The position numbers and the translations under genes are program-made. Below, one piece after another: positions 18,117 to 60,912 of a stretch of DNA of 64,000 bases; the first letter of the stretch is position 1; each line of letters begins with the position of its first letter. The notes under the pieces were generated by a model, which had not been told where the DNA came from, made no database searches, and was given only the letters and a program-made list of their open reading frames with translations. The stretch is from Octopus vulgaris (Eukaryota): positions 70,308,001 through 70,372,000 of the forward strand of contig OX597816.1 of the NCBI GenBank assembly GCA_951406725.2, in the 5' to 3' direction.

Positions 18117-18711
18117 ATTTCTTAATTCTTATTTCTTTATTGCCCACAAGGGGTTAAACATAGAGAGGACAAACAAGGCCAGACAAATGGATTAAGTCGA
18201 TTACATCGAGCCCAGTGCGTAACTGGTACTTCATTTATCGACCCCCGAAAGGATAAAAGGCAAAGTCGACCTCGGCGGAATTTGAACTCAGAACGTAGAG
18301 GCAGATGAAATACCTATTTCTTTACTACAATACAGGGAGGACAAACAAGGAGAGACAAACGGATTAAGTCGATTATATCGACTCCAGTACGTAACTGGTT
18401 CTTATTTAATCGACCCCGAAAGGATGAAAGGCAAAGTCGACCTCGGCGGAATTTGAACTCAGAATGTAAAGACAGACAAAATACCTATTTCTTTACTACC
18501 CAGAAGGAGCTAAACACAGAGAGGACAAACGAGGACAGACAAACGGATTAAGTCGATTATATCAACCCAGTGCGTAACTGGTACTTAATTTATCGACCCC
18601 TAAAGGATGAAAGGCAAAGTCGATCTCGGCGGAATTTGAACTCAGAACGTAGCGACAGACGAAATACCGCCAAGCATTTCGCCCGGCGTGCTAACGTTTC
18701 TGCCAGCTCAG
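18117..18711 (-). mobile_element. SINE family A trimer with 19-bp TSD
   Basis: One head plus three bodies of about 170-190 nt; TSD CTCACAACTGAGTAATCTT at 18098-18116 and 18712-18730. Confidence 0.93.
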
Positions 18712-25813: not shown

Positions 25814-26003
25814 GTTACAGTTCTGTATTTAAGAGATGAGGAATTCTGTACATTATTTACATTATTTACATTTGACGGACATTTGTCCACATCTTGTTTG
25901 TTGTTAACATAACGTTTCGGCTGATACACCCTCCAGCCTACATCAGGTGTCCTGGGGAAATTTCTAACCTGGATTCTCATTCCTAAGGTATTTTTCGATG
26001 TTG

Positions 26004-26049
<46 letters not shown>

Positions 26050-26135
26050 ATTTACTGCTTAGGATTGAACTCGGAATCTTGGGGTTAGTAGCTCGCGCTC
26101 TTAACCACTATGCCATATACCCGCGGGCATATGGC
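25814..26135 (-). mobile_element. Composite element: tRNA-like Pol III head, (AAT)n, hammerhead-bearing Penelope-like tail
   Basis: Minus strand: A-box TGGCATAGTGG (26115-26105), B-box GAGTTCAATCC (26072-26062), hammerhead-like motif at 25950-25907, ending in (TA)n; 5' fold-back palindrome at 26112-26135. Confidence 0.6.
25907..25950 (-). ncRNA. Minimal hammerhead motif with one core substitution
   Basis: acac-CTGATGT-A-GGCTG..CAGCC-GAAACGTT-atgt; stem II is 5 bp and helix III is reduced to the AACGTT palindrome. Confidence 0.55.
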
Positions 26136-26288
26136 TTTGTGGCAGCTGTCCAAGTCTTTGTGAGTTTCTCTATTGCAGCAATTAAAATAGTAGGTACTTT
26201 TGCCAGATTATGCACTTTAACATCAGCCATGAATGAGGGATAGAGGAATAGAGTTCTACTTTTATTGTTTGCATCACCAAACCGATAT

Positions 26289-38624: not shown

Positions 38625-39038
38625 CGGCGAGCTGGCAGAAACGTTATCACGCCGGGTGAAATGTGTAGCCGTATTTCGACTGTCGATACGTTCCGAGTTC
38701 AAATTCCGCCGAGGTCGACTTTGCCTTTCATCCTTTCAGGGTCGATAAATTAAGTACCATTTACGCACTGGAATCGATGTAATCAACTTAATCCTTTTGT
38801 CTGTCCTTGTATGTTTCCTCTGTGTTTAGCCCCTTGTGGGTAGTAAAGAAATAGGTATTTCGTCTACCGCTACGTTCTGAGTTCAAATTTCGCCGAGGTT
38901 GATTTTGCCTTTCATCCTTTCAGGGTCGATAGATTTAAGTACCAGTTACGCACTGGGGTCGATGTAATCGACTTAATCCGTTTGTCTGTCCTTGTTTGTC
39001 CCCTCTGTGTTTAGCCCCTTATGGATAGTAAAGAAATA
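38625..39038 (+). mobile_element. SINE family A dimer
   Basis: Head plus two bodies; junction GGGTAGTAAAGAAATA|GGTATTTCGTCT at about 38853. Confidence 0.9.
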
Positions 39039-49510: not shown

Positions 49511-49967
49511 TGTGTGTGTGTTGTGTGCGTGTGCGTGTGTGTGTGTGTGTGCGTGTGTGTGTGTGCGCGTGTGTGTGTGTTGATTTGCTCGGCTAAAGGC
49601 GATGCTCCAGCATGGCCACAGTCACATGACTGAAACAAGTAAAAGAGTAAAAGTGTTTGTGTGCGAGTGTATGTATGCACGCGCGTGTGTGTGTGCGTGC
49701 GTGTGTGTGTGTGGGTGTGTGTGTTTGTGTGTGTGTGTGTGTGCGTGTGTGCGTGCGTGTGTACGCGTAAGCTGATCTGTCAAACAAATTTGGCTGCCGT
49801 TATTTTAAGCAAACTGAACAGCCTTGTAGAAGCTCCAATATCGGCTCTGTCAGTCAAGCAAAGCCGAGCATGTAGAGTTTACTACCTTATCCAATATGGT
49901 TAGCTCACATTACTCCGTAAGGAGCGTAAGGCCGGTTTTGCCGCTTTCTCTTGTGTTTATATTTTTC

Positions 49968-50497
49968 CCGACGCTTTAACGATTTTGTCAGACCACTGCT
50001 CTACATGCAGGAATGATGAAGGTTCTCGGCCTAAAAGAAGCCCAGACACTAAAGGTAATTTTGGCTTGGTGGGCTTTGAGTACAAAATGTAAAGAGCCGT
50101 CTTAAATGCTGCAAAGCCTTTTTCCGACGCTCTAACGATTTTGTCAGACCACTGCTCTACATGCAGGAATGATGAAGGTTCTCGGCCTAAAAGAAGCCCA
50201 GACATTAAAGGTAATTTTGGCTTGGTGGGCTTTGAATACAAAATGTAAAGAGCCGTCTTAAATGCTGCAAAGCCTTTTTCCGACGCTCTAACGATTTTGT
50301 CAGACCACTGCTCTACATGCAGGAATGATGAAGGTTCTCGGCCTAAAAGAAGCCCAGACATTAAAGGTCTTTAAATACAAAATGTAAAGAGCCGTCTTAA
50401 ATGCTGCAAAGCCTTTTTCCGACGCTCTAACGATTTTGTCAGACCACTGCTCTACATGCAGGAATGATGAAGGTTCTCGGCCTAAAAGACGCCCAGA
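49968..50497. repeat. 156-bp tandem array of about 3.5 units
   Basis: CCGACGCT at 49968, 50124, 50280 and 50419 (last period 139 nt); units nearly identical. Confidence 0.95.
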
Positions 50498-51599
50498 AAT
50501 TTTGAGGGGAAGAATTTAATTGATGTCTTTAAATCTTTGAGTCAATACTTTTATGGAAGCAGAAAGGATAAATGAGAAAGCTGAACACAGCAGCATTTGA
50601 ACTTAGAACGTAAACAGATAGAACACACACCACAAATCATTTATATTCCGCCGGTCCGCGACAGAATTACTCGTTTTTACCAGCTGAATGAACCAAAGTA
50701 ACGTGAAATGAAGTGTTTTGCTCAAGAACACAATGTCCCGACTTTTTCAGAAATCGAAACTACAATCTTACGATCACATGTCCAACCGCTTAACCTCTAA
50801 GCCATGCGTCTCCACAAACCGTGTCCAATTTTGTTACAGTAAAATTCTGAACTGAAGTCAAGTGGTCAGTAGGCCATCGTCATGATACTTAACCCATGAT
50901 TTACTCTAGATTATGTCTAGGATTATTTCCAATAGATCTCTAGTTAGAGGAACTTAAAGTTTTGATATCACAACTCATCTTCCTCTTTCTGTTCCGTTTC
51001 ATTTCTCAAGTTTTATTTTATTTCTTTTTTTCTCTTTTAATTTCAAATATCTCTCATCTATTCTCTTTTGATCTGACTTTCTGTTCATACTAACCTTCAC
51101 TCTTTTGTTCTTTATGCCCTTCTTTTGCTCCTACATTGTATCACTTTCGTTCTATCAGCCTCTGCCCCCATTGATTCATCCAATATATCTCATTCCCTCC
51201 CGTCCTCTATTATGTTATTACATCTCCCACCTTTTTTTTTTTTCTCTATTACCTTTCCTTTCATACGAAATTTCATGCCCTCTTTCTCTTTCTATTTCTC
51301 TTTCTCTCTTCAAATTAGTCTAGCGATTACAGTTAAATTCTAGTTTGTGATTGATATAAAATATTGATTTGCAATAAGATCTATTCGGTGAGACAAGGAT
51401 ATGAGGAGTACTTCTCTTATGATGGGTAGTCAACAAACCGTATAAAATATCAAGGCAATCTCTTTTATTTCTCTGTTCACAAAGAGATAACAAATGTGTT
51501 TGCATCTGTTTAAAGTTCTACAACGAAATGTCTGGAAAAAAAACTGTAGTCTTAAATTTATGCAGTGCTGTGCATAAATATTTATATATTGTACACACA

Positions 51600-53340: not shown

Positions 53341-55685
53341 TGAGCTTGTACTGGACTCAAACTGGTCACAAGTAGTCACCTCTCCAACAAGAGGCGACAA
53401 CACCTTGGACCTGCTCTTCACCACAACTCCTGAAGCGGTTATCAATTGCACTACGGAGGAACCTCTAGGTGACTGATCATGCTATGATCATCGCCAATCT
53501 GGCTCTTGCGGGCAACAACAAAAACCGGAACCATCTCCAATCTGCTTCCTTCGATTGGAAGAGAGCAGATTGGAACCTGTACCACACTGAACTACAGCAC
53601 CCAAACTGGCGTGAATTCTACAACTCTGGAGATGTGAATACTATACTCCAGAGTATCCTGGACTCAATATGGGCAGCATGTGCAGCATCAGTGCCACGTA
53701 AACAGAAAAAGAAGAACCGCCCCAAAAGGGCAATTTGGGAAACTTCAGCGGTCCGACTTGCCAAGAAGGAACGTCGGACTGCTGAACGGGAATACAAGTT
53801 GCATAAATCAGACACCAACAGGAAGAAGCGGAATAAATCTTCCAACCATCTCAAACAAGTGACAAAAAAAGCAGTGCTTGAATTTGAACAGTGCATAGCA
53901 GCCAATCCTGACAGCAAGGTTTTCTGGAAATATGTGCATTCGAAGCAGAGACCTCACTCTCCAGTGGGCCCTATCGCAACCCTCACACAAACCAGATCAC
54001 TGACGACCCCAAGGAATGCGCAGAACTCATTGCCGAGTGCTATGCAAACATATTAACTGTTGAAAGTCAAAATGTACCATCTTCACCATCTCTAACAGCA
54101 AATTCCATAACAACTATGGAATTTACACCTGCAATGCTGCGACGTCACCTTCAAAATAAGCGCAACTATGCCTCCCCTGGTCTCGATGAAGTTACATACC
54201 TGCTTCTCAAACGTGGCAGGTACTTCCTTTTACACCAGCTTTCTATTTTCTTCCAGTACTGTCTCAACAATGGTGCTACTCCGGAGCAGTGGAAAACTGC
54301 CAGTGTCATTCCTCTGTTCAAAAAGGGCGACCGCACATCACCTGTCAACTATCGCCCAGTCAGTCTCACTAGCTGTATTGCAAAACTGATGGAATCGTGT
54401 GTCAGAGAAACACTCTGGAACTTCTGGAGCTCTCACAGTCTCATCCGACCCTCACAATATGGATTTGTCCCTAACTCCAGCTGCAGTGATCAGCTTGTCG
54501 AGTTCCTTGAGGACATTACTCAGATCACTGACAGTGGCTCATGGGTGGATGTTGTCTACCTTGACTTTGCTAAGGCTTTCAACTCTGTGCCACACAAAAG
54601 GCTTATGGTGAAACTCTCTGCAATGGGTGTGAGGGATGACCTTTTTAACTGGTTGAAATCCTTCATTCTCAGCCGAAAGGAGGTAGTCACAGTTCTAGGA
54701 CAGCATTCTACACCATATGAGATGTCATCGGGTGTACCACAGGGATCTGTCCTTGGTCCCCTCTTGTTTGTGGCATACATTAATGACATAGATGCCAATT
54801 TAAAGAATGCCACAGTATTGAAATATGCAGACGACATCAAGCTGTACCTTGAAATCAAGAGGACAGATCCTGATGTCTACAACTCTTTCCTGCAATCAGA
54901 CCTAGACACAATGCAGCAATGGATCACAGACTGGCAACTGAAACTGGCTGTGGACAAGTGTACCACCATGCATTTTGGGAGAAAAAACCCTGCGTCCACA
55001 TACTCCCTCCACAACACTGATATCAAGAAATCCTCTTGCGAGCGTGACCTAGGCATCACTGTCAGCAGTGATTTGCGTTGGACAAAGCATATCTCTAAAA
55101 TTGTCAAGAAGGCCGAGGGTGTCTTGGCATCACTCAGCAAGACTTTTGTTAGCCGCTCTCCAGCCATCTATTTAAAACTGTATACAGCTATGGTACGACC
55201 ACACTTGGAATTCGCATCATCAGTTTGGAACCCCTATCTTGCTCAGAACATTGACCTCCTGGAATCTGTCCAGAGACGTGCAACCAAACGCATACCCTCC
55301 ATCAGACACCTACCATATTCTGAGCGCCTTGTTTCCCTGGACATGGATTCACTGAAGCTCCGGCGTCTGGCGACGGACTTGGTAAACACCCACAAAGTTA
55401 TCAACCACCTCACCAACAACAACACTGAACACCTTTTTGATCTTCATGTGTCTAACACACGTGGACATGCCTACAAAGTCAGAAAATAACACAGCTCCCA
55501 TGACTTTCGGAAACATTTTTTCACGCTCAGAGTTGCTGAAGCATGGAATAAACTGCCTGCGTCAGTTGTTGACTGCCATGACACTGCATCCTTTAAGGCC
55601 CTCATGCTTTCCGAAATCCGCCGAAACTACACCTGATTATATATACACTTTAGATGAGTTATAGTGCACCTGAGCACTGTACACA

Positions 55686-60507: not shown

Positions 60508-60912
60508 TGGCAGAACCGTTAGCACGCCGGGCGAAATGCTTAGCGGTATTTCGTCTGCCACTACGTTCTGGCTTCAAATTCCGCCGAGGTCGACTTTGCC
60601 TTTCATTCTTTCGGGGTCGATTAAATAAGTACCTGTTACGCACTGGGGTCGATGTAATCAACTTCATCCGTTTGTCTGTCCTTGTTTGTCCCCTCTATGT
60701 GTAGCCCCTTGTGGGTAGTAAAGAAATAGGTATTTCGTCTGCCGCTACGTTCTGAGTTCAAATTCCGTCGAGGTCAACTTTGCCTTTCACCTTTCGTGGT
60801 CGATAAATTAAGTACCAGTTACGCACTGGGGGTCGACGTAATCGACTTTATCTCTTTGTCTGTCCTTGTTTGTCCCCTCTATGTTTAGCCCCTTGTGGGC
60901 AATAAAGAAATA
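60508..60912 (+). mobile_element. SINE family A dimer with 19-bp TSD
   Basis: TSD AGAAACGTGGTGTTGGAGC at 60489-60507 and 60913-60931; same internal junction as the other multimers. Confidence 0.92.

Follow-up and report, generated by a model that had tools for sequence, protein, structure and literature searches.

The window analysed here is a 64,000-nt stretch of the Octopus vulgaris genome (GCA_951406725.2, contig OX597816.1, positions 70,308,001 to 70,372,000), the minus strand of which carries a short composite repeat. Its 5' end is a 24-nt fold-back palindrome (26135-26112) formed by the start of the head and by an 11-nt arm, an inverted copy of the first bases of the head, with a 2-nt loop (26123..26135). 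This arm matches the inverted head exactly and is unlike the upstream sequence of the master element; the fold of the region 26050-26140 has a z-score of -2.96. The 74-nt head (26049..26122) is tRNA-derived as judged by comparison with tRNAs, with an A box at 26105..26115 and a B box at 26062..26070, but the acceptor stem is not kept. It is followed by an (AAT)n/(AAC)n linker (26000..26048; 26007-26047 by TRF) that differs in length among copies. The ATG at 25980 opens a stretch of 54 codons (25818..25980) that translates as the start of a Penelope open reading frame (ORF) and that, in this copy, is still in frame and open through a minimal type I hammerhead embedded in it (25906..25951). Further downstream, 9-nt repeats that start at 25871 (25848..25871) code in frame for Asn-Val-Asn, and the proximal 3'-end cluster of the family falls here. 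The distal 3' end of the family, a putative internal start of reverse transcription inside the ORF, is placed by copy ends at 25816..25818. An intron in the region of the 9-nt repeats was considered and dropped because the frame is open without it. All the parts listed in the preliminary description of this locus are present on one strand and in the order given there, but two of them change meaning: the (TA)n run is not part of the unit but flanking target DNA, given that the family ends at 25818, and the 9-nt repeats are not a SINE tail but coding repeats of the Penelope ORF start. No target-site duplication is visible at this copy.

The hammerhead of the window copy has a stem I of 5 bp, an extra base after A9, a stem II of 5 bp and a palindromic ACGT stem III, with a predicted cut between 25911 and 25910. 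It has two defects: A9 is changed to U (25940), which gives the core CTGATGT, and stem I contains a mismatch at 25910 (pair 1.1-2.1). According to the accessible part of the description of minimal type I hammerheads, against which the motif was read (PMC4209133), these have a core of CUGANGA and GAAA, an extra base between 9 and 10.1, a G10.1-C11.1 pair, palindromic 15.2-16.2 and a stem I of 4-5 bp. The family-majority hammerhead has all these features, whereas the window copy departs from them at A9 and at pair 1.1-2.1. The core substitution noted previously is real, and the consensus restores the core as anticipated: the family has CTGATGA or CTGAAGA, and A9 is retained in 69 of 77 arms that were not selected for the core. 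The U at position 9 is a private loss of the window copy, the ribozyme of which is probably dead. Neither the window nor any of 56 loci contains a tRNA according to ARAGORN, and Rfam yields neither a tRNA nor a hammerhead match for the window copy or for a near-consensus copy (L035), so that motifs and base pairing are the basis of both labels. The hammerhead is also absent from plain minimum free energy folds (z -0.12 and 0.16), which is expected of a dimer-type motif.

The family to which this copy belongs is abundant. Exact matches to a 34-nt core pattern number 2,349 in the genome, compared with none for the reversed control, and a looser hammerhead pattern has 8,476 matches against 78 for its control; about 90 of the first 100 listed matches to the loose pattern belong to the family. 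Since only 3 of the 77 arms not selected for the core fit the strict pattern and 10 fit the loose one, extrapolation from these match rates gives, as a rough figure, 60,000 arms. Other hammerhead families, which make up about 10 of the first 100 listed core matches, have the same core but different, paired stem II sequences. Three such loci (L278, L300 and L305; 1501-1527) lie in T-rich surroundings, and neither a tRNA head upstream of the hammerhead nor a match to a Penelope-like element (PLE) ORF was seen at them.

Head and tail form one linked family. In 40 head-anchored loci (from the first 56 matches listed, mostly leaving out places already sampled), the tail follows in register in 32, and seven of the remaining eight, in which a tail match is missing, run on into the AAT linker. 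ORF-bearing copies likewise have a fixed junction. The missing tails are the only point in favour of two independent repeats that happen to be adjacent, the situation that the preliminary description named as its refutation; with the junction fixed across loci, this explanation is negligible.

The nature of the unit becomes apparent from what lies on either side of it in longer copies. In six tail-anchored loci (L045, L047-L050 and L053), a common stretch upstream of the head encodes the end of a PLE endonuclease. A search with the ORF end, in which the query itself carried about 18 nt of the head, yielded 30 loci (5 of these being duplicates of two insertions), and in 23 of the 30 the tRNA-like head follows directly, about 30 nt past the stop codon. 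On the other side, 30 N-terminal loci were compared, and 17 of them have a tail that runs straight on into the ORF. One locus (L200) is a full-length partial tandem, and another (L208) likewise shows a partial-tandem pseudo-LTR (pLTR). The unit order is thus tRNA-like head, (AAT)n, start codon ATG, hammerhead within the ORF, the ORF for reverse transcriptase (RT) and GIY-YIG nuclease, and the next head. A majority model built from 57 fragments contains a single open frame of 835 aa with DKG, RT core and C-terminal CCHH-type (GIY-YIG) nuclease motifs, DKG and CCHH being named after the accessible text of PMC8557442. No Zn finger-like linker of the kind found in Neptune or Nematis is seen by eye in this frame. 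Pfam RVT_1 is matched with an E value of 2.7e-6, below the curated cut-off; the nuclease domain is not matched in a decayed copy, and relatives (P0069, P0073 and P0096) carry PF01541. Because the unit consists of a 3' UTR and an ORF start, it is a pLTR by definition. We conclude that the SINE-like unit is almost certainly the pLTR of an autonomous Penelope/Poseidon-type element, and the stretch in the window is a decayed solo pLTR. The PLE with a matching pLTR that was to be sought for the tail has been found, and the whole unit, head included, belongs to it.

Several observations concern the wider distribution of the element. Three relatives (P0003, P0124 and P0135) keep a peptide homologous to the ORF start that is read through the hammerhead, P0003 at 55% identity, so that the ribozyme-in-ORF layout is older than this family. 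Loci L047-L050 (G000:C1, 7.93-9.05 Mb) represent one ORF-bearing inverted insertion that was segmentally duplicated several times. The pLTR family is also present in four other organisms (L091:1880-2700, runs X17-X20). Contigs of two of these (D and B) span the region from the ORF end to the head; in organism E, ORF-end contigs are deeper and have variants of their own, perhaps those of a younger subfamily, contig depth being an unreliable measure.

The insertions bear the marks of Penelope machinery. The strict core served as anchor for 99 loci, taken from the first 100 matches listed on contig C1, two of which fall in one locus. Copies end at -9 to +11 relative to the distal 3' site in 55 of these loci, in a proximal cluster 24-34 nt before it in 35 and elsewhere in 9, and an adjacent inverted arm is present in 67. 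Partial-tandem pLTRs, inverted 5'-truncated arms and an optional tail, here in the form of two 3' ends, are all features of PLEs, for which an optional tail of 30-40 bp and inverted copies are known (PMC8557442, accessible text). The two 3'-end clusters and the inverted arms fit this optional tail and the two internal RT starts of PAc (Poseidon_Ac), a PLE of the Penelope/Poseidon clade from Anolis carolinensis. This much of the earlier proposal, a SINE mobilised by PLE machinery, holds: given the inverted arms and a spacing of about 25-34 nt between the two 3' ends, insertion by Penelope machinery is well supported.

The SINE half of that proposal does not hold. The unit does possess a tRNA-related head with A and B boxes, but this head is not foreign to the autonomous partner, being part of the PLE's own pLTR, and the 3' end is not a poly(A) or a simple repeat but one of two fixed sites inside the ORF start. 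Nor do the short copies form a non-autonomous lineage of their own: in a comparison of 47 short with 53-59 ORF-linked copies, a small sample from which minor solo lineages could escape, every common variant is shared (7 sites, Fisher p 0.29-1.0) and both linked haplotypes occur in both sets. With the head in an autonomous pLTR, the tail equal to the ORF start and no private variants, we do not class the unit as a SINE. A true SINE derived from the pLTR, the solo copies of which would have Pol III transcripts of their own and depend on the PLE enzyme in trans for their mobility, is unlikely, even though it would account for the prevalence of short copies: an upstream ORF is found in only 8 of the 40 head-anchored loci, leaving about 80% without one, and a 26-mer just upstream of the head, spanning its junction with the 3' UTR, has 536 exact matches in the genome versus 2,931 for a 22-mer inside the head. 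The discrete 5' end, the A and B boxes and the lack of an internal terminator are in line with it as well, and non-autonomous pLTR derivatives are known, namely retrozymes (bioRxiv 10.64898/2026.07.22.740005) and non-autonomous Chlamys (PMC8557442), as far as the accessible parts of these sources go. Besides the shared variants and haplotypes, it is at odds with the ends of the solo copies, which fall at RT start sites and, by analogy with PAc, would lack the downstream ORF stretch needed as template; a shared flank-derived 3' extension was not observed among the copies inspected. Solo copies may still have been re-amplified to some degree in a SINE-like manner.

The head itself is 46/74 identical to the genomic tRNA-Arg(TCG) (z 8.1), the best of 25 tRNA sequences of 6 isotypes, and in the majority sequence both boxes are intact at tRNA spacing. 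The 5' ends of copies pile up at this head. Among the 99 listed loci, 38 stop before +12, 47 between +12 and -17, and 14, four of which come from one duplicated insertion, pass into the ORF; in other words, of the 61 listed copies that reach +12, 47 stop in the next 30 nt. Ends of 61 out of 74 head arms lie between -8 and +8 (13 extend further), with a peak of 14 at -7, an end that fold-back at any point of the palindrome would yield identically. The empty interval from -9 to -23 carries no information as too few copies survive to it. A purine that follows a pyrimidine a few bases before the tRNA +1 suits a Pol III start. RNase P trimming at the tRNA +1 was another candidate source of ends (12 arms are scored at 0) but was set aside, since many of these ends can be put down to CpG decay at -1.

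The pile-up is compatible with a different origin. The same pLTR might contain a passive head, a captured fragment of a tRNA or SINE, within a Pol II RNA made from an internal promoter or by host read-through, the ends at the head resulting from RT stalling or fold-back at the palindrome, or from a chance Pol II start. We regard this as possible but doubtful. The known PLE promoter, according to the accessible text of PMC2377424, is LINE-like and internal to the pLTR, and the start in Drosophila virilis also lies in the pLTR, so that a 5' pile-up alone does not identify the polymerase. Furthermore, inverted arms account for 50 of the 74 head arms, and the hairpin at the head start (-13.4 kcal/mol) is the most stable 40-nt window of the pLTR region. 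Against a passive head, the boxes are intact at tRNA spacing, and non-inverted copies stop at the head as well (13 of 24 end between -7 and +8). The hairpin is not unusual for the element, since windows of the ORF reach -16.6 kcal/mol, with values of -10 or lower in 11 of 469, and copies pass hairpins of similar strength at the ORF end.

A further argument comes from the depletion of T-runs, the terminators of Pol III. The majority unit of 2,685 nt contains no T4 run on the sense strand, compared with 2.9 expected from synonymous shuffles (P 0.03) and 4.9 expected when third bases are redrawn (P 0.004), and across 92 copies no T4 site is common to 10%. T-rich 5-mers, a statistic picked after the T4 result, occur 3 times versus 15.6 expected, with none of 1,500 shuffles as low. 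In z and density they lie below every one of the 33 control PLE ORFs with a length of 1,400 nt or more, the controls being single copies from other animals and the tested family a majority model. With the length limit set at 900 nt, 54 control PLE ORFs show no overall depletion (362 T4 versus 335 expected), and the two that lack T4 have a low expectation. Four LINE families of the same genome contain 1.7-7.4 T4 per kb (30 rows minus L264 and L275, which were in the wrong frame). A second octopus PLE ORF was not recovered as an in-genome control; the rows of one search, many of them at places already sampled, appear to represent the same family. Other homopolymers are partly depleted too, which counts in favour of a passive head: A-rich runs are reduced (A5, P 0.011-0.017; A-rich 5-mers, 155 versus 181 expected) and G4 runs are likewise absent, so that part of the T signal may reflect general avoidance of homopolymers. 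However, the depletion of T (80%) far exceeds that of A (15%) and covers the whole ORF. If selected, this pattern points to Pol III transcription of the full unit rather than of the pLTR only. One control, a metagenomic PLE ORF (L337:199-1614), also has no T4 in 1.4 kb (z -2.3), and neither A and B boxes nor a head were seen downstream of it. No A/B-box pair was found within at most 700 nt downstream of 80 control PLE matches, many of which have short flanks or lack the ORF end.

In the search across sequencing runs, no RNA data set was listed as carrying the unit. RNA reads were available from three RNA-seq runs of a related species (about 6% of the reads of each). Reads of the family are nearly equal on both strands, and their depth, about 1,000-fold on the pLTR and mostly below 15 along the ORF's 5' half, tracks genomic copy density; no common transcript start or strand bias is present in the three runs. 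Passive transcription of dispersed copies, or a library that does not preserve strand, would produce such a pattern, which is uninformative as to the promoter.

Taken as a whole, the model in which the solo pLTR is a run-off copy of a predicted Pol III transcript of the element, the identity of the pLTR included, has a probability that we put slightly above one half (about 0.55). Under this model, TFIIIC and Pol III would start at the head, some 6 nt ahead of the tRNA-like +1, and would read through the whole unit, free of T-runs as it is. The RT of the element would start internally near codon 45-54, as in PAc, and on most templates would arrive at the 5' end of the RNA once about 320 nt have been copied. 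If its last base is the G at -6, the cDNA would then fold back on a 4-bp palindrome and prime itself, which would yield the 24-nt palindrome of the window copy, and the product inserted would be a solo pLTR that carries an inverted arm and looks like a SINE. Starts on RNA longer than the unit, or on circular RNA as in the model outlined in the accessible part of PMC4209133, would give the copies, about 20%, that run into the ORF. Translation of the ORF may use the uncapped RNA with the help of the A-rich leader, or Pol II read-through. An uncapped RNA of 2.7 kb is a poor mRNA. The evolutionary scenario behind the model, in which an autonomous retrotransposon swapped its Pol II promoter for a captured tRNA promoter, purged terminators over 2.7 kb and shed run-off products as tens of thousands of SINE look-alikes, appears to us evenly balanced between right and wrong.

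Autonomous retrotransposons are held to be transcribed by Pol II, and a Pol III promoter is taken as the hallmark of a non-autonomous SINE. The octopus SINEs OR1 and OR2 of Ohshima and Okada (1994) are reportedly derived from tRNA, with tRNA-Arg said to be the source. They are classed as CORE-SINEs (PMC4824008, PMC4758252) and, going by the accessible descriptions, the octopus unit is set apart from them by the (AAT)n linker and the PLE ORF start behind the head. Among known elements, as portrayed in the accessible parts of the respective papers, PAc resembles the octopus family in its layout: it has a single ORF with RT and C-terminal GIY-YIG, a pLTR made of 3' UTR and ORF start, a hammerhead overlapping the ORF start, two internal RT starts that produce an optional tail of 30-40 bp, and AT-rich targets (PMC11167929). 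RT starts at +111-118 in PAc, with a minimum RNA extending to +172. The overlap of hammerhead and ORF start is therefore already known from PAc. Unlike in the octopus family, no tRNA-like head is described there, and the ATG, located 29 nt before the hammerhead in octopus, is at stem II in PAc. Penelope of D. virilis shares with the octopus family the promoter and start inside the pLTR, partial tandems and a downstream copy driven by the 3' UTR belonging to the copy upstream, but has a TATA-less LINE-like promoter and a 75-bp intron in place of A and B boxes and an open frame without an intron (PMC2377424).

Other relatives of the unit are non-coding or non-autonomous. A short repeat, dispersed or in tandem, in which a hammerhead comes after a Pol III promoter has its precedent in Sm-alpha/Sj-alpha of schistosomes, which are non-coding and SINE-like with canonical hammerheads (PMC6765202, accessible text), in contrast to the octopus unit, where the terminal repeat belongs to a coding element and a minimal hammerhead lies within the ORF. 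Non-LTR retrozymes are likewise short hammerhead repeats related to PLE pLTRs, but are described, in the parts accessible, as tandem non-autonomous units cut to monomer circles (PMC7761336; bioRxiv 10.64898/2026.07.22.740005), whereas the ends of the octopus unit are set by RT starts and the head and not by the ribozyme. The accessible text of the latter preprint mentions neither a tRNA nor a promoter. In O. vulgaris, Penelope-like elements are reported to occupy 6.83% of the genome, with no detail on this family in the accessible text (PMC13282606); the head motif has no match in one supplement of the O. vulgaris repeat paper, the TE library of which may include the family. In the literature searched, largely open-access papers, neither a tRNA-derived promoter in a PLE pLTR nor a PLE-mobilised octopus SINE was found, and no description of an autonomous retrotransposon copied from Pol III transcripts was encountered.

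If the model is correct, a Penelope element templated by Pol III would break the division between Pol II-transcribed autonomous elements and Pol III-transcribed SINEs. Its short copies would amount to a SINE that has no SINE master, and might show how Sm-alpha-like elements and tRNA-headed retrozymes arise. A single construct could then be used to probe both the translation of an uncapped, ribozyme-bearing PLE RNA that is cut past its start codon and the regeneration of pLTRs. A very abundant octopus repeat is a PLE end that annotation tools would name a SINE, which affects the tallies of SINEs and PLEs alike.

The window contains other repeats. Tandem repeats of 183-185 nt at 18162-18668, 38671-39038 and 60545-60912 belong to another abundant family, which presumably resembles the octopus OK SINE. 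A 156-nt tandem repeat in 3.6 copies that are 94% alike is located at 49963-50501, and a LINE reverse transcriptase is encoded on the plus strand at about 54326-55012, within an open frame of 525 aa (C3:70362326).
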